Assembly (NCBI GenBank): GCA_944323735.1
Contig: CALUTO010000006.1
Coordinates: 8,000 to 71,999 of the forward strand
Direction: 5' to 3'
Source: Candidatus Gastranaerophilales bacterium
GTDB taxonomy: Bacteria; Cyanobacteriota; Vampirovibrionia; Gastranaerophilales; Gastranaerophilaceae
DNA length: 64,000 nt
Shown: positions 29,180 through 40,421 of the stretch, in pieces
Position numbering within the stretch: position 1 is the stretch's first letter
Layout: each line of letters opens with the position of its first letter
Program-made: the position numbers and the translations under genes
The notes under the pieces: generated by a model
The model's database searches: none
What the model was told of the DNA's origin: nothing
What the model saw: only the letters and a program-made list of their open reading frames with translations

Positions 29180-30064
29180 ATGAATTTAATTAAACCTGAA
29201 AATCTAAAACCCGGCTCTACCATTGCTTTTGTCTCAGTTGCCGGTGAAATACACGAAAATAATACACTTGAAAATGCAAAAATTTATTTTGAAAAAAAAG
29301 GATATAAGGTGAAAATATTTGCGCCTGAGAATAACTGTGCATATCTCGGCGGAACAGATAATGAGCGGCTATCTGCGTTACATAGTGCATTTTTGGACCC
29401 TGATACAGATGCGCTGATTGCTATGCGTGGCGGTTACGGCAGTCTGCGCTTGTTAAATAATATCGACTGGCAGCTTATAAAAAGTAATCCAAAAATTTTT
29501 GCCGGCTATTCTGATATCACAGCACTGCTGCTTATGATTTATAAAAAGTCCGGACTTATTACTTTCCATGCACCTATGGTGTGTTCTGATTTTGGAGACG
29601 GTATTACTAAATTTACGGAGAATAATTTCTTTAAAACTCTGTGCAGCGGTTTTGACAGTGCTGAATTGACAGGCTCTTACAACGGCAATAGTGCATACGG
29701 TACACTCTGGGGCGGCAATCTTTCGACGGTTGTTTCTCTTTGCGGACAGGATTTTCTGCCGGAGGAAAAGTTTATTATGTTTTGCGAAGATATAAATGAG
29801 CCTGTGTATAAAATAGACAGAGTGTTTACGCAGCTTGGAAATATCCAAAAATTCAGACAGAACATTGCCGCTCTTGTGATTGGTGATTTCAGCTGGCTTG
29901 ATGACAGGGATATGTTTATTGAATATATAAAACAACTCGCACTCTCTCTTAATATTCCTTTGTTTTTCGGACTAAAATCCGGACATGAAAAAGATAAGCT
30001 GACACTGCCCGTTGGTGTCCGCATGAAAATAGAAAATCTTGTTTTAATGTCAGATGAATATTAA
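29180..30064 (+). CDS. ldcA: LD-carboxypeptidase (peptidase S66, LdcA/MccF family)
   Basis: 294 aa. ALIAMRGGYGS, nucleophile motif FAGYSDITAL, C-terminal SGHE. Confidence 0.8.
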   Translation: MNLIKPENLKPGSTIAFVSVAGEIHENNTLENAKIYFEKKGYKVKIFAPENNCAYLGGTDNERLSALHSAFLDPDTDALIAMRGGYGSLRLLNNIDWQLIKSNPKIFAGYSDITALLLMIYKKSGLITFHAPMVCSDFGDGITKFTENNFFKTLCSGFDSAELTGSYNGNSAYGTLWGGNLSTVVSLCGQDFLPEEKFIMFCEDINEPVYKIDRVFTQLGNIQKFRQNIAALVIGDFSWLDDRDMFIEYIKQLALSLNIPLFFGLKSGHEKDKLTLPVGVRMKIENLVLMSDEY

Positions 30065-31919
30065 AATGCTTAAAGTTTTTGAAAAACCTGCCGATATAGA
30101 AGTTATGGAAAATTTTATAAATAAAATTAAATCAAAATTTAATACGCCTGAATTGCCGGACAATGGGAATGTTGTGCCAAAAAATGACACTATAAAGACG
30201 GATAGTGTCTTTTTGAGGGAAGATATAGACTTTCAAAATGAGGATACAATAATAAAACAAAAAACGTCCGAGGAATTGATTATAGAAGAATTAAAAAGAA
30301 CCCGTGCGCAAAAAAAATCCGAAATCACCCCCGAACAAGAACAATTAAGAAAAAAACTTTTAAAAGAGACCGGCAGAGAATTTTCTCAGGAATCTCTTGA
30401 TTTACTTGAAGGAATAACGGCGGAAAAAATTCAACTGGCAAAAAAAATTATAAACATTGACAGGGAACAAACACTTTCTGAAAATGATCTGACTTTTTTG
30501 CTTTTGGCTGATGATATTTCTGAAAATGATTTGCCAAAACTGGAAAAACTCATAAATATGAAAGAAAGAGAATTCGGATTTTCCGCTTCAGAGCTTTGTC
30601 TTCTCTCAAAACTTTCTGATGAAGAAATTGAACGGGTGCGGGAGCTGTCCTCTGTGCCGGACAGAATGGCTAAATTTAATGCAAAAGAACTTTCACTTCT
30701 TGTGAAAATGCCTGAAAATGTACTGGATAGCATACTACAAAAAAATCCTGATATTCTTATTGAAAAAATCAGCAGTGATTGCCTGTCTTTTGAAACATAC
30801 AACAGTGATGAAACAAGAATATATGAAATATTTGATACAAAATTGAAAAAGTTTGTTGAAAAACAAACGGTTGAGATAAACGGAGACAAAATCACAGAAA
30901 CAATAGAAAATACGCAAAATAATATTAAGCAAAAAATAGTCTCAGACAGGTATAACAGCGTAATCGAGGATGAGCAGATTTTTCGTTATGACAAAAACGG
31001 TGAACTGCTTTCTGTCGAGCATCTGAGGAAAAATGACGGAATTGTCGGTCAAAATGCCAGCCTTACAGACAAAAACGGAAAAATTTATCCTTTGCAGCGG
31101 GAAAACTTTGACAATGAAACAGGTATAAAAAGTGTAGAAAAAAACTTTACTTCGCCGGATGGTACAAGAACAGAATACTTCTATGAAGAAATGCCGGACG
31201 GCAGCAGAATTTCCGAATATAAAATAATTGATTCAAGCGGAAATGTTTTGCTGAATGAGCATACGACTTTTGCTTCCGTAAATGGAGATAAAAACAGATT
31301 TGTGTCCTCACGTAACGGGTTTGTCTATGAAATAGAACACAGGAATGACAGAATAATAGTCACTGACAAAACTAAAAACAGGACTGCGGAAATTGATATA
31401 AATAAACTAACCGGTTCAAAACCAGAAAATTTTGTAGAGGTTTTGAAACAGCTTTCCGGTGATTATCTTATGCGGATAGCTGAAAATCCTATTAAATTGG
31501 AAGAAGCAGAATTTGACCCCGGACTCTGGGGCAATGAAAGCAAAGTGCTATATCTCGGTGTTTCTGAGTGGTTTAGCGGAGATGAAGAAAAATTTTCTGT
31601 TTTTCTGCATGAACTGGGGCATTATATTGATACTGAAAAAATAGGTGATGATTTTGGCATATATTCAGGAAACAGAGAGCTTAGAGAGATATTTGAAAAA
31701 GAAATTGAAAATTTCAAGAAGCATTCTACTACAAAACAGCAGATGTTTATAGATTATTTTATCGGTGACAGAGGTAAAAGTTCTGCAGCCGAAACATTTG
31801 CTGAGTCCAATATGCTGTTATCAACTCCATATTCAACAAGAAGAGCATATTATCTGCAGCAGAACTTTCCTCGAACAATAGCGAAAATTGCAGAGCTTAT
31901 AAAATCAGATTTGCAGTAA
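30054..31919 (+). CDS. multidomain protein: tandem helical repeats, YD-like repeats, C-terminal anthrax-lethal-factor-like (peptidase M34/ATLF) zincin domain
   Basis: 621 aa. HELGH at 31608-31622 followed by SSAAETFAES. The pattern HExGHxxD...EIFEKE...AETFAE...QQNFPRT parallels anthrax LF (HEFGHAVD...DIFKEE...AEFFAEAF...QKNAPKT) as I recall it. No signal peptide seen. Confidence 0.7.
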   Translation: MNIKMLKVFEKPADIEVMENFINKIKSKFNTPELPDNGNVVPKNDTIKTDSVFLREDIDFQNEDTIIKQKTSEELIIEELKRTRAQKKSEITPEQEQLRKKLLKETGREFSQESLDLLEGITAEKIQLAKKIINIDREQTLSENDLTFLLLADDISENDLPKLEKLINMKEREFGFSASELCLLSKLSDEEIERVRELSSVPDRMAKFNAKELSLLVKMPENVLDSILQKNPDILIEKISSDCLSFETYNSDETRIYEIFDTKLKKFVEKQTVEINGDKITETIENTQNNIKQKIVSDRYNSVIEDEQIFRYDKNGELLSVEHLRKNDGIVGQNASLTDKNGKIYPLQRENFDNETGIKSVEKNFTSPDGTRTEYFYEEMPDGSRISEYKIIDSSGNVLLNEHTTFASVNGDKNRFVSSRNGFVYEIEHRNDRIIVTDKTKNRTAEIDINKLTGSKPENFVEVLKQLSGDYLMRIAENPIKLEEAEFDPGLWGNESKVLYLGVSEWFSGDEEKFSVFLHELGHYIDTEKIGDDFGIYSGNRELREIFEKEIENFKKHSTTKQQMFIDYFIGDRGKSSAAETFAESNMLLSTPYSTRRAYYLQQNFPRTIAKIAELIKSDLQ

Positions 31920-32751: not shown

Positions 32752-33219
32752 ATGAAAAATTGTGTAAAGTACTGCGTTTTAGGTCTGTCTGCTTTTGTTA
32801 TAGGTATGTCAGTAAATAATTTTGCTGTTTCTGATGTACCGTCAAACTATAAAGTAGCTGTTGTTGATGTGCAGAAGGTTGTGGCTGCATCTTCCCAGGT
32901 AAAAGCACTGAAAACAGAACAGCAGAAAAAATTTCAGGATTTAAATACATTTGTTAAAAATGCAAATGCTGCAGTAAATAAAGAAAAAGATGCAGCTAAG
33001 AAAAAAGCTCTGCAGGATAAGTACAACAAAGAATACAATACAAAAAGAGCTGCAATTCAAAAAGATTATGCTGCAAAACTCTCATCAATTGATAAAAATA
33101 TCTCATCAGTTATTGCTGCTAAAGCAAAACAGGATAACTACAATCTGGTACTGGCAAAGGGCGTTGTTCTTTCAGGCGGTACAGATATAACAGCTGAAGT
33201 TACGAAATTAATCAAGTAA
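32752..33219 (+). CDS. skp: OmpH/Skp-family periplasmic chaperone
   Basis: 155 aa. Signal peptide, then KVAVVDVQKVVAASSQVKALKTEQQKKFQDL and a long Lys/Ala/Gln coiled region. Confidence 0.75.
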   Translation: MKNCVKYCVLGLSAFVIGMSVNNFAVSDVPSNYKVAVVDVQKVVAASSQVKALKTEQQKKFQDLNTFVKNANAAVNKEKDAAKKKALQDKYNKEYNTKRAAIQKDYAAKLSSIDKNISSVIAAKAKQDNYNLVLAKGVVLSGGTDITAEVTKLIK

Positions 33220-33232
33220 AAAATATTCTTAT

Positions 33233-33270
33233 AAAAAGCCCTGACTAACAATCAGGGCTTTTTTATTTTT
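33233..33270. terminator. bidirectional terminator (skp / unknown operon)
   Basis: AAAAAGCCCTGA-ctaacaa-TCAGGGCTTTTTTATTTTTT. Confidence 0.85.
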
Positions 33271-33838
33271 TATACAGGTCATTAGCTGCATTGTTTCTTA
33301 AAAGTTCAAGCAGTGCGCCTCCGATTTCCTGATTCGGGTCAAACGATATATTAGGCGGGTGAAAAGTGTTTTTGATGAGCATACTCATTAGCGGGCCGAA
33401 TGCATCAGGAACTTTGATTTTTCTGTAAATTCCGGCCAGCAATACCTGTATCGTCGGAGATGTTGTTCTGTCAAAACGGCATATGACCGGATAAAACTTA
33501 TCAATACCTTTTACTCCTGCATCAATCATTCTGTCCAGTATATACAATCCTTCTGCTACCTGTTTTTCCTCCTGTACAACAGACAGATAGTTCCACAGGT
33601 AAGGCAGTGCATCTTCTTTGTAATCCGCAATCTGCTTTACCAGATTCTGGTTAAAGAGAGTATAATTTCTGCTTCCATCCGGAAGTTGGACGGCTGTGCC
33701 TATTTGAGGTATAAGAGTGCCGAGCGGTGCCTTACACGGGTAAGGCAGGCTGCTTTTAAATGAAATTTTATTGAATTTATTTATTTTATTGATTTTCATA
33801 ATCTTAAATTCATTCCCTGTATTAAATCTGAAGAGCAA
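33263..33838 (-). CDS. hypothetical helical-repeat (HEAT/ARM-like) protein, third gene of unknown operon
   Basis: 191-aa ORF (TTG start; alternative ATG ~33799). All-helical wording, e.g. ALPYLWNYLSVVQEEKQVAEGLYILDRMIDAG. No family recognised. Confidence 0.6.
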   Translation of the reverse strand: MLFRFNTGNEFKIMKINKINKFNKISFKSSLPYPCKAPLGTLIPQIGTAVQLPDGSRNYTLFNQNLVKQIADYKEDALPYLWNYLSVVQEEKQVAEGLYILDRMIDAGVKGIDKFYPVICRFDRTTSPTIQVLLAGIYRKIKVPDAFGPLMSMLIKNTFHPPNISFDPNQEIGGALLELLRNNAANDLYKK

Positions 33839-33856
33839 TTTGACAAAGAATATCCC

Positions 33857-35416
33857 CTATGAATAAACAAACGGCGGGCCGTTTTTGATTTCGCACAAAA
33901 TATTTTCAGCACGTGTCTTGAGCTCCTGCTTGTCTTTTCCGGAGCGTGCCTGTTTTCTGAATTCATCCATGAGCGGTTCTATGACACTGCTTTTCTTTGC
34001 ACTGAAATTGTTCAACTCCACATTGACAAGTCTGTCCTGCAGATTATATTCGGTTTTTGCATTTTCTTTCATAACCTGTACTGTTTTCTGGGCATCAACA
34101 ACCGATGTTCCTATATAGCTCAGAGCCGTAACGGTCGACATGCCTGCAAATACCAGCTTCAAAATGGGATTTTCCCAGTTTACAATCATATTATAAAGAT
34201 GTGCTCTGTCACCCTCTGTGTATGAGTAGAGCATCGGCTTTGAGCTGGGTTTTCCGGCTATAGCCTCCGCACCGTGTACAGTAACACGTTCAACTTCTTT
34301 TTTTACATATTCATAAAAATCCTTCGGGTATTTTCCTATTTTTTCCGCTTCTTTTTCCAGTGCCTCTCCGGTCAGATTTTCACCAAGTCCGAGTACATGT
34401 TTTATCTCTCTGTCTGTGGCATTAAGGGAAACGAAAATATTGTTTAGTGTATTGAGCTCTTCCTGTGTCATTTTTCCTTGATTGTTCTGAATGAGCTTTT
34501 TCCAGTAATTAAGCATTTGTGAACGGTAGCCGTTTATATTCTGTGCTGTACTTCTAAGAGATTTGAGAGCGAATGCCCCGAGTGCGCTAATAGAAAGTAC
34601 CGTGCCAAGTATCATCGCTGACGCAATAAAAAGGCTGCTTTTTTCCTGCTTTTTATCTTCTTTGTGTCCGAAAGACAAAAACTGCTTAAATGTTGCATTT
34701 TCCTGACCTTTTGTATTTGTATGCAAAATAAAATCCAGTTCTTTTGCTTTGTCAGAAAGCATATTCCTCATAATCTGCATTTTTCCTGAGAAGCTTCTTG
34801 TTTCAACCGCAATCAGTTTTTCCTGTAAGTCCCGCTGGATATCTGCCTGTTTTTTTCTTATCCAGATTTCTTTAACGCCGTCTATAAAATTTTTGCTTAC
34901 CAGTCCGATTGCACTTAAAACAAAAACTCCGAGTGCTCCGAGTATATTCCTCATATTGGGATCTCTAATCATTAGAAGCGTTGCAAAATGCGGTTCATCA
35001 TTTATAGAAATGTTTTTAGGAATTTCCTGAAGAGTTTTCCATGAAGGCAGAATTTTTTTATATTTTGCAGCATGGGAAAGCAACCCCGTTGTGCCAGCAA
35101 TCAATCCGAAAAGACCGATTGTGCCGCCAAGAAGCGGCATAAGTGTCTGATGAATAGGCTTTTCCTGATTATTTGCTTTCTTTTTCTCTGAAATTTTTTC
35201 AAAATTGTCAGGTTTTGTAGTTTTGTCAGGAATAATCAAATTGTCATATATTTCATCAAGATTTATTGTCTCTGATGCATTTTCTCTGTCTTTTATTAAA
35301 TTATTGACAACCAGCCCTTCTTTTAGCTCTGAGATGTTACGTCTCTGGGTATCAGTAAGGTTTCTGTATTGCTTTCTTGTTTCTAAATCCTGATATGGCT
35401 TAATATAGATGCTCAT
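33857..35416 (-). CDS. hypothetical integral membrane protein with internal duplication, second gene of unknown operon
   Basis: 519 aa. Four hydrophobic helices (LLGGTIGLFGLIAGTTGLL, ILGALGVFVLSAIGLV, LFIASAMILGTVLSISALGAFAL, LKLVFAGMSTVTALSYIGTSVV). The second and fourth are followed by related segments: FIDGVKEIWIRKKQADIQRDLQEKLIAVETRSFSGK and VVDAQKTVQVMKENAKTEYNLQDRLVNVELNNFSAK. Confidence 0.75.
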   Translation of the reverse strand: MSIYIKPYQDLETRKQYRNLTDTQRRNISELKEGLVVNNLIKDRENASETINLDEIYDNLIIPDKTTKPDNFEKISEKKKANNQEKPIHQTLMPLLGGTIGLFGLIAGTTGLLSHAAKYKKILPSWKTLQEIPKNISINDEPHFATLLMIRDPNMRNILGALGVFVLSAIGLVSKNFIDGVKEIWIRKKQADIQRDLQEKLIAVETRSFSGKMQIMRNMLSDKAKELDFILHTNTKGQENATFKQFLSFGHKEDKKQEKSSLFIASAMILGTVLSISALGAFALKSLRSTAQNINGYRSQMLNYWKKLIQNNQGKMTQEELNTLNNIFVSLNATDREIKHVLGLGENLTGEALEKEAEKIGKYPKDFYEYVKKEVERVTVHGAEAIAGKPSSKPMLYSYTEGDRAHLYNMIVNWENPILKLVFAGMSTVTALSYIGTSVVDAQKTVQVMKENAKTEYNLQDRLVNVELNNFSAKKSSVIEPLMDEFRKQARSGKDKQELKTRAENILCEIKNGPPFVYS

Positions 35417-36105
35417 TTTTCACCGTCTTTTTGTTCGTTTTCCTGACTTTCGTCCCTGTGTCTTTCGGGGTTAAACAGGATTTCTTTCAGATTCTTTAAA
35501 TCAAACAGTCTTTTTTCTTCTTCAACCCGTTTTTCTTCCTCTTCGTTGTCTGCTTCGGCTATTCCGAAAAGGTTAAACAGCTTCTTTTTCAATTCTCTTA
35601 ACTTATCGGAAATTTTCTTTTCCACTGCTGCTTTCAGTTCTCCAAAAACTGCCGTCAGTTTGTCAGTAATTTCAGCTATTTTTTCTTTTACAGAGTTTAG
35701 CATGTTTGATAATGATGTGTGCAAACCGCTAAATACTGTTTGTACAAAGCGAATTGCCGGCATGATTATGTTGTTTGTTACTGATATCAGTGTATTTGAT
35801 ACCGGAGCAGGCAGAAATTTTATCATCAAATCCCGCATTTGCTCGGCGAACTGTGCAGCTGCCTTCATCATCGTTTTTTGTGCCTGCAAAAGAGCTTCTG
35901 TCTGTGCTTCTTCTTTTGCGAGTTTTTGGGCTTTCATCATTTGTCCGATGGCATAGCACTGACTCCAGGTGAGTTCTCCGGGTTTGTGCTCCGTAACTCT
36001 TGACGCTCCGCCGCCGCCTGCTCCGCTGCAGACAGGACAGGCACCCGGCGGTAATCCGTGCGGGCAGGTTCCGGTTCTAACACTCCCTGAAATCTGTGTA
36101 GACAT
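35413..36105 (-). CDS. hypothetical zinc-knuckle plus amphipathic-helix protein, first gene of unknown operon
   Basis: 230 aa. N-terminus TGTCPHGLPPGACPVCSGAGGGG (C-x-H...C-x-x-C-x-G-x-G), then Ala/Lys/Gln-rich helices and an acidic tail. ATGA overlap with the next gene. Confidence 0.75.
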   Translation of the reverse strand: MSTQISGSVRTGTCPHGLPPGACPVCSGAGGGGASRVTEHKPGELTWSQCYAIGQMMKAQKLAKEEAQTEALLQAQKTMMKAAAQFAEQMRDLMIKFLPAPVSNTLISVTNNIIMPAIRFVQTVFSGLHTSLSNMLNSVKEKIAEITDKLTAVFGELKAAVEKKISDKLRELKKKLFNLFGIAEADNEEEEKRVEEEKRLFDLKNLKEILFNPERHRDESQENEQKDGEK

Positions 36106-36341
36106 TAAAAAATCCCTGTTTATCTGTAAACCCGGGATACTTAAAGCTCATTATGCGCCTTGACCTAAGCTCGAAGTACCGGCATATTTAGGGGAAAACA
36201 AGTAATCATACTGTGTTTTCTATGCGGTAAAAGTTTTTTGTTATTTTCTTTATTCCAAACAAATTTACCGTTTCCCTCAGAGTATTCCGGCTGTTACGGC
36301 TGCGGCTCAGTCGGGGATTTCCGCCCCAGTTTCCTCTGTTT
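36106..36341 (-). promoter_or_regulatory. structured 5' leader, riboswitch-like (partial resemblance to cobalamin riboswitch core) with terminator/SD-sequestering hairpin
   Basis: Minus-strand GC-rich island AACAGAGGAAACUGGGGCGGAAAUCCCCGACUGAGCCGCAGCCGUAACAGCCGGAAUACUCUGAGGGAAACGG. 3' hairpin AUCCCGGGUUUA-caga-UAAACAGGGAU plus UUUUU abuts the AUG (36112-36138). No clear B12 box, so ligand class is uncertain. The confidence given is for the cobalamin class; I rate a cis-regulatory leader of some kind at ~0.6. Confidence 0.4.
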
Positions 36342-36346
36342 CGTAC

Positions 36347-36375
36347 ATTCTAAAATACAGGTGTTGCATTGTCAA
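36347..36375 (-). promoter_or_regulatory. sigma-70 promoter of the unknown operon
   Basis: Minus strand TTGACA - 17 nt - TAGAAT; consensus -35 and near-consensus -10. Confidence 0.65.
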
Positions 36376-36442: not shown

Positions 36443-37066
36443 ATGCAAAATTATAATATTAACTATTATAATTCAATTGATAATATTTCTGAAAATTCAC
36501 AGCATATCATGGAGGAAATTATTTTGACACCATGGAATGCACTAAACGATGCTCAGCAAAATTATGTTGTAAACCAGTTGAAAAAGTGCGGAATGTATTC
36601 AGTGTATGAGAATGTCAGGATTTCTAAAACAACAGATGCATTAAAAAGTATGGACAGTGCTCTTTATTATATATTCAGGGAAAATGATAAATTTGTGAAA
36701 ATTGCAATGGGGCAGCCGGAGGGCTTTTTCTTCAGTGATGAAAAAACCGCTGAGAAAATTCTTCAGCGTATCTTTGAACACCCGCAGTTTGATAAATCAC
36801 TCTGGACAAGCAGAAAATACAGAAAAGCTTCTCAGATTTTGAATGATATTACGAGAATGCCTGACTGCAGCATAAAATATTATCAGGAAAATAAAGAATC
36901 TTTTGAAAAGAGAAAAAGACAGTCGCTTCTGGCAAGAGAAACCGCACTTTCTTTAAATTTAAAGCGCAAGCTTAAACTCTATTTTACAAATCCGAATATT
37001 GTTAATACAAGGGATTATGAAATATTTGAAAGCAGGAAATATCCCAGTTCTTTTATAATTACTTAA
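36443..37066 (+). CDS. hypothetical protein
   Basis: 207-aa ORF, GAGAGGA SD upstream, own terminator downstream. No motif recognised. Confidence 0.65.
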   Translation: MQNYNINYYNSIDNISENSQHIMEEIILTPWNALNDAQQNYVVNQLKKCGMYSVYENVRISKTTDALKSMDSALYYIFRENDKFVKIAMGQPEGFFFSDEKTAEKILQRIFEHPQFDKSLWTSRKYRKASQILNDITRMPDCSIKYYQENKESFEKRKRQSLLARETALSLNLKRKLKLYFTNPNIVNTRDYEIFESRKYPSSFIIT

Positions 37067-37420: not shown

Positions 37421-37702
37421 ATGAAAAAAGTAATTGCATTATCAGCACTTATTATGTCATTAGCAGGCACTGTTGCTTTTGCTGCGTGTCCCTGTCAGAT
37501 ACAGCAAAAATCTTATATAGCCCCTGTGTCTAAAATTACTTATGTTGCACCGGCAAATCCATGCTGTTGCAAAGTTGAACCAAAACCCTGCTGTACGGGT
37601 GCTGCTGCTCCAATAACACAGAAAAAATCTATGTGGGACAGGACAAAAAATATTTATAACTCTACTGTAGGAACCTTCTTTACATCTATGCTCGGATACT
37701 AA
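37421..37702 (+). CDS. small secreted Cys-rich protein
   Basis: 93 aa. Signal peptide MKKVIALSALIMSLAGTVAFA. The mature part has CPC, CCC and CC clusters. AAGGAGAAAAG SD and its own terminator. Confidence 0.7.
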   Translation: MKKVIALSALIMSLAGTVAFAACPCQIQQKSYIAPVSKITYVAPANPCCCKVEPKPCCTGAAAPITQKKSMWDRTKNIYNSTVGTFFTSMLGY

Positions 37703-38589: not shown

Positions 38590-39348
38590 TTACCCCTTGT
38601 TTCTTAAGTCAGGCAGATTTAATCTGAAATAGAATTGTTTAAGTGCTTCTGATACAGTAGCTGAATTTCTGGAGAGTGATTTGCCGGCAAGATTTTCGTC
38701 TTCAGGTATTATTGCCAGCATGTCCAGACTATATTTTGTAAGAAGCTCATGAATTTTGGGCATATCATCGGGTTTTACCCTGTTTATTACCAGTCCCATC
38801 TGTCCGCCTGCAGCATATTTTGCGGAAAATTCTTCAATGCGTTTAGCCAGCAGAAGTGATTCTTCTGTCGGAAGCGCGAGCACCAGTGTAACATCTATAT
38901 CTGTGTCCACAACCTGATTCAGATATTTCAAATCAAATTCACAGTCAAATATAACAATGTCATACGCAGAAATCAGTTTTGTGACTGCGTCTCTCATAAG
39001 AGAGGTCATTGGACATCGGCAGTCCTTTGACGGCACAAGCCATGAAACAATCAAATCAACATTGTCCTCAACAGGAACAATTATATCCTCAAGTGCCCAT
39101 TCAATATACTCCTGTTTAGACATTTTCTCGGGTAATCCTGTTTTGAGTTCGTGCTTGCCGCTTCTTATGCCGTAAATTGTTTTTCTTATATCTTTTCCGT
39201 ATGTGTGTCCGAGTTCTCCGGAGAGGTCGTTGTCAAAAAGCAGAATACTTTTTTCAGGGTATATTTCCCTGAATAGTTTTGCAAAACCTTTTACTAAAGT
39301 AGTTTTTCCGCTTCCGCCTTTTCCTGTTAGCGCAAAAGTTATGGGCAT
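38590..39348 (-). CDS. CooC-like P-loop metallochaperone ATPase (MinD/ParA superfamily)
   Basis: 252 aa. GKGGSGKTT deviant Walker A. SKDCRCPMTSLMRD matches the C-x-C-P metal motif of CooC (R. rubrum GSGCVCPEHALVR, from memory). Confidence 0.65.
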   Translation of the reverse strand: MPITFALTGKGGSGKTTLVKGFAKLFREIYPEKSILLFDNDLSGELGHTYGKDIRKTIYGIRSGKHELKTGLPEKMSKQEYIEWALEDIIVPVEDNVDLIVSWLVPSKDCRCPMTSLMRDAVTKLISAYDIVIFDCEFDLKYLNQVVDTDIDVTLVLALPTEESLLLAKRIEEFSAKYAAGGQMGLVINRVKPDDMPKIHELLTKYSLDMLAIIPEDENLAGKSLSRNSATVSEALKQFYFRLNLPDLRNKG

Positions 39349-40421
39349 TTAGACCTCCGTTTTGTTAATTCTGCGGATAAATCACACACCAGCGTCATTG
39401 CCCTGTCCGCAAGTTCTACGGAAAGAGAGCCTGCGCCGCAGGAGGGTGTCAGGATACTTTGTTTTTCTATTAGTGATTCGGGTATTCCCTTTTCCGAAAG
39501 TGATTTTACTGCGTCATAATATATGTCAGCCAGCTCTTTTAAACTGATTTTTTTGAGTGCATCTGAATCTAATGTCGGAACCAGTCCCCAGGCGATATAA
39601 CCTCCGTTTTCCAAAAAAGTTTTTATTTTTCCGGCATAAGGTACAAGGCTTTTTGCAAAGAAAAACGCATCGAGATTTATAATATCAACTTTTGAGTCAA
39701 TAAGTACAGACCAGTCAGACTTTCCGCAGCAATGAATTCCGCTCATTGCTCCAAATTCCCTAACAGTTTTTGCTATTTCCGAAAAAGCTTCAGTTAAATC
39801 CTCTTTTGTAATGGTTACAAAGGCAGATGTTCCGTACTGCGACATTACCGGTTCATCGAAAAAGATAATAGGCGTTATTTCGGGGTTTATTTCTTTTATT
39901 TTATGTATTTGCCATATTGCTTTTAAGGTAACTGCTTTTACCAGAATTTCACGGCAAGTTTCGTCATAAAAAGAACATTGCAAATCTCCGTCGCAAATAC
40001 TGGTACCCCACGTGAAAGCACCTGTAACATGTCCTTTGGCAAATTTATAGTTTTTATTTTTCAGTTTTTCAAAAAACAGATTTATTGCATTGGAATATGG
40101 CGGAGTTATTGCATATTTTTCAAGTTTCGAGAAGTTTTTTTCGTTTACTATCTCTTCGTAGTCCATGAAAAACTCTTCCAGTTGAATAAAAAATTCATCT
40201 GAGGTTGTGTTGAAAATGTATTTGTCTTTCTGTTCATCATAATATATGCCGGGGATACCTTGAATGTACTGCACGGTCATATCTTCATGTCTGTCAACTG
40301 CTCCCAGCTGCGGCCAGAAAGGGATATCTGTAAATTTCTCAAATATCATATCCACTGCTGTTTTTGAATCGGTATAAGGCAGACTTCCTATTGCTGTCGG
40401 CTTTAATGATAAATTATCCAC
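39339..40421 (-). CDS. core MetE-like (cobalamin-independent methionine synthase C-terminal / UROD-fold) methyltransferase
   Basis: 360 aa, GTG start after GGAG. TAIGSLPY, FFDEPVMS, GIHCCG and TPSCGAG correspond to the substrate and zinc-ligand motifs of short MetE-type enzymes. Confidence 0.6.
   Translation of the reverse strand: MDNLSLKPTAIGSLPYTDSKTAVDMIFEKFTDIPFWPQLGAVDRHEDMTVQYIQGIPGIYYDEQKDKYIFNTTSDEFFIQLEEFFMDYEEIVNEKNFSKLEKYAITPPYSNAINLFFEKLKNKNYKFAKGHVTGAFTWGTSICDGDLQCSFYDETCREILVKAVTLKAIWQIHKIKEINPEITPIIFFDEPVMSQYGTSAFVTITKEDLTEAFSEIAKTVREFGAMSGIHCCGKSDWSVLIDSKVDIINLDAFFFAKSLVPYAGKIKTFLENGGYIAWGLVPTLDSDALKKISLKELADIYYDAVKSLSEKGIPESLIEKQSILTPSCGAGSLSVELADRAMTLVCDLSAELTKRRSKCP

Follow-up and report, generated by a model that had tools for sequence, protein, structure and literature searches.

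Cobalamin riboswitches have earlier pointed to missing parts of B12 metabolism, including BtuM, CbrT, BtuG, CbiR and CbtAB, and in organisms that do not make B12 they mainly control uptake-related genes and less often B12-independent isozymes. One such part is the solitary BtuM, a small importer, not of the ABC type, in which a cysteine ligates B12, and cobalt transporters of previously undescribed families (CbtAB) have also been found under these switches. Here we describe a three-gene operon, with genes designated A, B and C, that lies behind a predicted class-II cobalamin riboswitch in a 64,000-nucleotide (nt) stretch of contig CALUTO010000006.1 of a Candidatus Gastranaerophilales bacterium (the window; all positions are window positions unless a locus is named). 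We interpret A-B-C as a corrinoid-repressed module for B12 acquisition or handling that is built from new protein families, a functional assignment to which we give a probability of roughly 40%. The assignment draws on the riboswitch regulation together with the predicted lack of B12 synthesis in gut Melainabacteria, whose genomes are scored as having an incomplete B12 pathway in Table 1 of a published reconstruction (PMC4914512). It is further supported by the properties of the proteins, as B is membrane-embedded and contains a duplication, A has four invariant cysteines and one invariant histidine, C has a confidently modelled ARM/HEAT-like fold, and there is no competing annotation for any of the three.

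The operon resembles the described B12 uptake operons (btuB, btuFCD, ECF-CbrT, BtuM) in the type of cis-regulator, in its probable OFF logic, and in having a central membrane protein, but A-B-C has no sequence or fold relation to them, includes no ATPase, substrate-binding protein or TonB-dependent barrel, and instead has two soluble cytoplasmic partners of new families. No homology to B12 importers (FecCD, ABC_tran, Peripla_BP_2, ECF S-components, TonB-dependent receptors and ABC exporter folds, including the BacA-type ABC proteins) is seen for A, B or C among Pfam and NCBIfam matches, PDB sequences, and fold searches of the B and C models. CbtA/CbtB and similar cobalt transporters are alike in being small membrane modules of undescribed families that were recognised by their riboswitch and have a metal-binding accessory protein, but they have no homology to A-B-C, and the host lineage is a predicted B12 non-producer, which makes a cobalt role unlikely.

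More generally, the initial annotation of this DNA had recognised no family in the three proteins, and none is homologous to a characterised family in Pfam, NCBIfam, PADLOC, PHROGs or PDB sequences, or in Foldseek searches with the B and C models. Scans with the single proteins and, for Pfam, with each alignment member give compositional or chance matches only (Baculo_PEP_C, Apolipoprotein, tape-measure proteins, REase_II over 46 amino acids (aa), AI-2E and HblD), and profile searches of PDB sequences with A, B and C return just ATP synthase subunit b, apolipoproteins, designed bundles and the like. No mention of the operon, or of riboswitches in Melainabacteria, was found in the literature searched. 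We regard the protein module as new; its regulator is assigned to an already described riboswitch family, and only C has a recognisable fold class.

The three genes are transcribed leftwards, on the minus strand. Gene A (35413-36105) codes for a soluble 230 aa protein whose N-terminal part carries a Cys/His knuckle and which also has a Gly run, amphipathic helices and an acidic tail; gene B (33857-35416) codes for a 519 aa integral membrane protein; and gene C (33263-33799, with an ATG start) codes for a soluble 178 aa protein predicted to be an ARM/HEAT-like alpha-solenoid behind a variable N-terminal stretch. The stop codon of A overlaps the start codon of B in an ATGA at 35413-35416; A and B are translationally coupled, and C lies downstream. 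The reading frames and the overlap are as first described, with the exception of the start of C, which had been placed at a TTG at 33838 (33263-33838 in the mechanical list of open reading frames, ORFs), giving a protein of 191 aa and an 18-nt gap after B. The ATG at 33799 begins MKINKINKF, and the three closest C relatives begin MKVDKVSFK, MQVKKIAFK and MKINKVSFK directly after the B stop, with no upstream extension; the true start is therefore the ATG at 33799, which shortens C to 178 aa and lengthens the B-C spacer to 57 nt.

The boundaries of the unit, the leader above and a strong terminator below, were correctly drawn in the initial annotation, and can now be mapped more closely. A sigma-70-type promoter (TTGACA-17 nt-TAGAAT, 36347-36375, minus strand) with 11 of 12 consensus matches abuts the 5' edge of the aptamer, and orthologous leaders also have a -10-like TAAAAT/TACAAT box just 5' of the aptamer. 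At the other end, a bidirectional intrinsic terminator acting on both strands (33233-33263) is formed by a 12-bp G+C-rich hairpin that has an A-run at one end and a T-run at the opposite end, and also serves a convergent OmpH-like gene (32752-33219, plus strand).

The aptamer (36270-36347, minus strand) is assigned to the class-II cobalamin riboswitches (Rfam AdoCbl-II, RF01689; env8 type) by an Rfam match in E-value mode and by R1, our own covariance model built from 33 leaders. The AdoCbl-II match, at 36272-36347, covers the full model (1-81) with 30.5 bits (E = 4.5e-5), which is under the Rfam gathering score of 36.5 bits mainly because of the outer helix, and at gathering thresholds Rfam gives zero reports in the window; R1 scores the same aptamer at 75 bits. 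Orthologous leaders reach or exceed the gathering score, at 37.4-48.6 bits, in 10 of the 17 other loci scanned, always upstream of A, and in these the match spans the full model length with the conserved core intact; among these scans, the L004 leader scores 43.9 bits, nine of a set of 15 loci score 37-49 bits, and the L001 leader scores 34.9 bits. With R1, exactly one aptamer is present upstream of A in 80 of 82 sources, the remaining two being without upstream DNA, and an aptamer is also detected in four more loci, including the divergent L211. No further R1 copies were found in the window, its flanks, or about 780 kb of related loci. Like described members of the family, the leaders display covariation in the stems: the main aptamer hairpin has compensatory changes in four of five pairs among the 33 leaders, and covariation in the outer helix was noticed by eye in the leader alignment and is uncounted.

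Departures from the family model include, besides the low score of the window copy, a long insertion in the last hairpin of some orthologues. The leaders of L022, L038, L039, L041/L007, L042, L064 and L067 have a 15-60-nt insertion in this P6-like hairpin, so that the aptamers span 91-135 nt instead of 76 and score only 50-58 bits with R1; they form a riboswitch subtype that is structurally distinct but belongs to the same operon family.

By sequence family, then, the leader is a probable class-II cobalamin riboswitch whose ligand is probably a corrinoid, and the possibility raised earlier, that it senses one, is borne out as far as sequence similarity to AdoCbl-II can tell. A lineage-specific aptamer variant for a non-corrinoid ligand, which would leave the operon unconnected with B12, could explain why the window copy falls under the gathering score and why no B12 gene is near the operon; we consider it very improbable, as more than half of the orthologous leaders scanned exceed the curated threshold over the full model with an intact core, and we know of no cobalamin-riboswitch variant with a changed ligand.

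A metagenome scan with an aptamer-core pattern shows that the pattern itself is not lineage-specific, as 35 of 83 matches precede A/B and the others are from other bacteria. Two of the loci without A-B-C are described here. The metagenome contig Ga0310690_10176524 (L118:1-1278) carries an aptamer 87-92% identical to the operon aptamers (76 bits with R1), followed by a 95 aa ORF (L118:879-1166, minus strand) and an ORF for a membrane protein of at least 275 aa (L118:1-824, minus strand), neither of which is related to A, B or C; the contig may represent another locus under riboswitch control, from a related organism. Contig Ga0209210_1004132 (L123:2413-5768) contains an unrelated cobalamin-riboswitch operon of another low-GC bacterium, coding for a 607 aa secreted protein with prenyltransferase-like repeats, a small secreted protein that appears DUF4430-like by eye, and a multi-transmembrane protein, and looks like a conventional corrinoid-binding and uptake set.

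Between the aptamer and gene A is a putative expression platform (36107-36137, minus strand) with a hairpin at 36113-36137 that contains the Shine-Dalgarno (SD) sequence AGGGA (36113-36117) in its 3' arm, and a U-run (36107-36112) directly before the ATG. Among 77 distinct orthologous leaders the SD is paired in a local hairpin in 58 and a T-run directly precedes the ATG in 65, and the mean folding energy is -9.8 kcal/mol, compared to -5.5 for shuffles. The best alternative partner of the anti-SD arm is the 5' AGAGGAA strand of the aptamer, an SD mimic, in 39 of 57 leaders. We infer that the SD-sequestering hairpin and the SD mimic of the aptamer together form the usual architecture of an OFF switch. 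No partner for an L5-L13 kissing loop is convincingly assignable in the expression platform by eye.

Homologues of the A-B-C genes are found with E-values of 1e-80 to 1e-240 across more than 80 independent genomes, showing that A, B and C are real genes and not chance ORFs. There are 219 homologues of A, more than 150 full-length homologues of B (about 500 aa, down to 35% identity) and 693 of C; all of their recorded names are "hypothetical" or "uncharacterized", and none has a Pfam domain. Relatives of B occur in 503 stretches in a scan with one genome per GTDB species, and of the 80 stretches that were kept and provide the source labels, nearly all are labelled Gastranaerophilales or Melainabacteria, the others being labelled uncultured bacterium or carrying Clostridia or Muribaculaceae bin names.

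Synteny was followed by profile searches of six-frame ORFs from 87 loci. Gene A is immediately 5' of B wherever upstream DNA exists, and C is immediately 3' of B, the exceptions being one clade (L007/L040, L041) and contigs that are truncated. In eight loci read from their called-gene coordinates, A and B either share 1-29 nt or are separated by 3 nt. The flanking genes vary by locus, and include chemotaxis genes, a peptidase S41/TPR cluster, radical-SAM genes, murein genes and an RND pump. That A-B-C and the leader stay together amid these differing flanks identifies them as an autonomous module, and the conserved neighbourhood that the initial annotation proposed looking for is indeed kept lineage-wide. 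The operon is self-contained and appears to be specific to Gastranaerophilales, non-photosynthetic relatives of the cyanobacteria.

Two clades have an additional gene behind C. Where B is about 38-40% identical to that of the window, the next gene after C, in the same orientation and some 110-150 nt away, codes for a conserved protein beginning MGMAASQARFLGLTARK, with a length of about 335-360 aa. This gene lies at L004:8391-9431 and correspondingly in L043-L087; its product is without a recorded Pfam family, and it has no counterpart in the window. In the clade at about 58% identity there is a small ORF of 146-154 aa without a Pfam match, on the same strand and 56-70 nt after C (L001:8176-8616 and L208:12170-12634), which may be a clade-specific fourth member of the operon.

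Protein A is characterised by a metal/thiol motif at residues 14-30 (C-P-H-G-L-P-x-G-A-C-P-[IV]-C-x-G-x-G; 36016-36066, minus strand), whose Cys and His positions do not vary in the alignment. The full set of invariant residues is C14, P15, H16, G17, P19, G21, A22, C23, P24, C26, G28, G32, E44 and C50, and there is a central conserved block, I-x-DKL-x-A-x-x-GE-x-K. A strict pattern (C.H.{4,8}C..C.G.GG) is present in 106 of 117 family members; ten of the other 11 depart from it solely in the Gly run that follows the final Cys, and the eleventh was read without the motif region.

The initial annotation likened this region to a DnaJ-type zinc knuckle. The wording is there, with one exact CxxCxGxG (C23-G30) preceded by a CxH knuckle and followed by a fifth invariant residue, C50, but the DnaJ cysteine-rich domain has four CxxCxGxG repeats and two zinc centres, and its family (PF00684) is absent from the 25 families most often matched by 56 members of A, so that A is not a DnaJ domain. 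A relationship to PduO-type adenosyltransferases (PF01923, Cob_adeno_trans) was also rejected, as only seven of the 56 members match weakly (best E = 0.0064) and no adenosyltransferase is among the matches of the PDB profile search at E <= 10. The Cys/His site of A may bind zinc structurally, may bind a different metal, or may provide a set of thiol/imidazole ligands.

The remainder of A had been described as a body of amphipathic helix, a description with which consistent weak matches of the members to amphipathic-helix families in Pfam agree (Baculo_PEP_C in 40 of 56, Apolipoprotein in 20 of 56). A itself has no Pfam match at E <= 1 and no family match in NCBIfam, PADLOC or PHROGs, its profile finds only generic helical proteins among all PDB sequences, and neither a transmembrane (TM) segment nor a signal peptide is predicted.

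The Cys/His site raises the question of whether the operon serves metals and not corrinoids, through uptake of cobalt or another metal or as a metallochaperone, like CbtAB or CbiMNQO, with the metal bound at the Cys3His/Cys4 site of A and B as the channel. The invariance of C14, H16, C23, C26 and C50 would suit such a role, for which CbtAB provides a precedent of new transporter families under cobalamin riboswitches. The short CxH...CxxC knuckle is more likely a structural zinc site, though, and models of cobalt and nickel transporter families (CbiMNQO, NiCoT, CbtAB, CorA) give no match beyond that of one of 37 B members to CorA (E = 0.037), a single-member signal at chance level. Since gut Melainabacteria are predicted not to produce B12 (PMC4914512), regulated import of cobalt would have no purpose, and overall we regard a metal role as improbable.

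Protein B has hydrophobic segments at about residues 92-114, 158-178, 258-283 and 418-438, three of them strong and one weaker by hydropathy, and the density of Lys and Arg (16, 21 and 18% in the putative inside regions, 11 and 13% outside) favours a topology with both ends inside. An AlphaFold2 (AF2) model of B is all-helical and moderately confident (predicted local distance difference test (pLDDT) 70.8, predicted TM-score (pTM) 0.60), with long helices at 155-232, 259-311 and 417-491; in this model TM2 and TM4 extend into helices of 75-78 residues. Repeat 1 (residues 140-212; 34781-34999, minus strand) and repeat 2 (residues 401-474; 33995-34216, minus strand) each consist of a short helix, a TM helix (TM2 or TM4) and an amphipathic helix, KEIWIRKKQADIQRDLQEKLIAVETRSFSGK and QKTVQVMKENAKTEYNLQDRLVNVELNNFSAK respectively, and are related by hhalign with a probability of 96-97% (E = 1e-9 to 2e-11). 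The four TM helices had been read as an internal duplication with related amphipathic ends; the duplication and the kinship of the amphipathic ends hold, but one of the four segments is weak and no relatedness is detectable between TM1 and TM3.

B ends in a tail, NGPPFVYS (33860-33883, minus strand), that is identical in 111 of 118 family members and is kept in divergent members. Conservation is highest in this tail, in the juxtamembrane helices and in a stretch of the N-terminal domain, and is lower in the TM helices. No family match to B is present in Pfam, NCBIfam, PADLOC or PHROGs, and a profile search of PDB sequences gives generic helical proteins only. An exhaustive search of 1.84 billion representative proteins with the B profile gives just 246 matches; the 150 listed are all of the B family itself or its fragments, and none links it to a described family. 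By hhalign the three proteins are also unrelated to one another (A with B, A with C, C with B).

The AF2 model of B has no significant structural neighbour in the PDB by Foldseek, the best being the ClyA pore (E = 0.2, TM-score 0.18-0.30). A pore-forming or membrane-remodelling system of the ClyA/Hbl type could be proposed from the best B matches (ClyA pore, XaxB and MakA; E = 0.2-1.9, TM-score 0.13-0.30) and from a faint NCBIfam match to HblD (E = 0.011), but the structural matches are non-significant (E = 0.2-0.3 for ClyA) and of a sort that is usual for long helical bundles, and the HblD match has 14.7 bits where the cut-off is 650. Secretion signals are absent, the sizes and architecture of the proteins are unlike those of tripartite alpha-pore-forming toxins, and the operon is a near-universal core feature of its lineage under a vitamin switch; of the explanations considered here we find this the most remote.

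The distribution of conservation in B would suit a B12-sparing or adaptation module, needed only when corrinoid-dependent metabolism is unavailable and acting as a membrane-associated scaffold or in membrane maintenance, not as a transporter. Cobalamin riboswitches also control the B12-independent substitutes metE and nrdDG with the same switch logic, so that the regulation of A-B-C would look the same for a sparing function. The best-conserved parts of B are its cytoplasmic juxtamembrane amphipathic helices and not its TM helices, A weakly but repeatedly matches amphipathic lipid-surface families, and no transporter hallmark is present in A, B or C. Set against this, compositional bias typically produces weak helical matches of this sort, A, B and C do not look enzymatic, and to our knowledge there is no B12-dependent membrane process that such proteins could replace. 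We judge a sparing function to be rather unlikely, if clearly more credible than a metal, pore-forming or non-corrinoid role.

Protein C, in which the initial annotation saw a HEAT/ARM-like helical-repeat protein, is the only one of the three with a described fold class. The AF2 model (pLDDT 89.7, pTM 0.82) has seven consecutive helices from residue 51 behind the variable N-terminus. Almost all of the top 50 Foldseek matches in the PDB are ARM/HEAT solenoids (probability up to 0.98, TM-score 0.40-0.51), including V-ATPase subunit H, FANCE, APC-ARM, designed armadillo proteins with bound peptides, deoxyhypusine hydroxylase and CNOT9, although no match reaches E = 1e-3 and the E-values are all >= 0.13; this supports the fold class but no specific family. 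We are confident, on the strength of the model, that C is an ARM/HEAT-like alpha-solenoid at the level of fold class.

The C model superposes on alpha-solenoids such as V-ATPase subunit H, APC-ARM, designed armadillo proteins and deoxyhypusine hydroxylase, but differs in having only about three repeats and in forming a family of its own. C has no Pfam HEAT/ARM match (V-ATPase_H_N and ARM_LIN_2nd are matched at chance level, by one of 77 members each), and neither a TM segment nor a signal peptide is predicted. ARM grooves commonly bind extended peptides, and the invariant tail of B is accordingly a plausible ligand of C. We note separately that C and several neighbouring hypothetical proteins in the loci have short and similar N-termini of the form M-x-I-x-[P/S/K]-[I/V] (MKINKI, MQISP, MILNSI, MINKINNINFKG), which could be a lineage-specific N-terminal signal or a compositional habit.

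If the operon acts in corrinoid acquisition or handling, its regulation and parts would work as follows. With a corrinoid bound, the aptamer helix would lock the AGAGGAA-like 5' strand, leaving the anti-SD arm to pair with the SD and to turn off translation, transcription or both; when corrinoids are scarce, A, B and C would be produced. B would sit in the cytoplasmic membrane with both ends inside, as a pseudo-twofold pair of units, each made up of a short, a TM and a long amphipathic helix, and would probably oligomerise. Its conserved cytoplasmic helices and the invariant NGPPFVYS tail would recruit the soluble partners A and C. The Cys/His knuckle of A could bind a metal, or could ligate the cobalt of the corrin through a thiol or imidazole; BtuM is a precedent for cysteine ligation of B12. 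The complex would then serve to acquire or capture corrinoids, or to hand them over within the cell, in an organism that is unable to make them.

A more specific proposal is that A-B-C is a new corrinoid import and trafficking machine, with B as an oligomeric, pseudo-symmetric four-TM conduit, A capturing the cofactor in the cytoplasm and perhaps ligating or reducing its cobalt, and C docking on the B tail as an adaptor, a machine that would need neither an ABC ATPase nor a TonB-dependent receptor and would be unique to this non-photosynthetic sister lineage of the cyanobacteria. We put this forward tentatively, as possible but on balance doubtful.

Several observations weigh against a role in corrinoid acquisition or handling. 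Neither transport nor the binding of corrinoids is demonstrated by any feature of the proteins. By eye, A, B and C show no obvious B12-binding motif (DxHxxG...SxL...GG; no systematic motif search was made), and none of the three, alignment members included, has a match to a canonical B12-binding domain in Pfam. The operon encodes no ATPase, periplasmic binding protein or outer-membrane receptor, and because A and C have no signal peptide they could not scavenge outside the cell. With its membrane helices less conserved than its cytoplasmic helices, B is more like a membrane-anchored scaffold than a substrate pathway, and is not like a classical transporter. No B12-related gene is next to the module in any locus surveyed, including the window, and the OFF polarity of the switch is read solely from complementarity.

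The surroundings in the window are otherwise unremarkable, and the parts scanned contain housekeeping genes only (dnaX, LD-carboxypeptidase, Hsp20, OmpH, proS, thrS, ilvC, leuA, gdh, gshAB, fliD, ETF and nadBC). Divergent from the operon promoter is an ORF of 207 aa (36443-37066, plus strand), with its 5' end about 70 nt from the -35 box, and beyond it is an ORF of 93 aa (37421-37702, plus strand) with a signal-peptide-like N-terminus and Cys clusters (CPC...PCCCK...PCC); neither has a Pfam match. Two sizeable ORFs, of 621 aa (30054-31919, plus strand) and 360 aa (39339-40421, minus strand), are likewise without a Pfam family.

The riboswitch marks a three-protein module throughout the Gastranaerophilales, which are widespread and poorly cultured bacteria of the human and animal gut. 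Should A-B-C import B12, the functional category itself would be an old one. If the module does import or process corrinoids, it would represent a new family of transporters or chaperones and would account for the way in which the lineage competes for gut B12. If instead it has another role when B12 is limiting, a so far undescribed membrane process linked to B12 would come to light.

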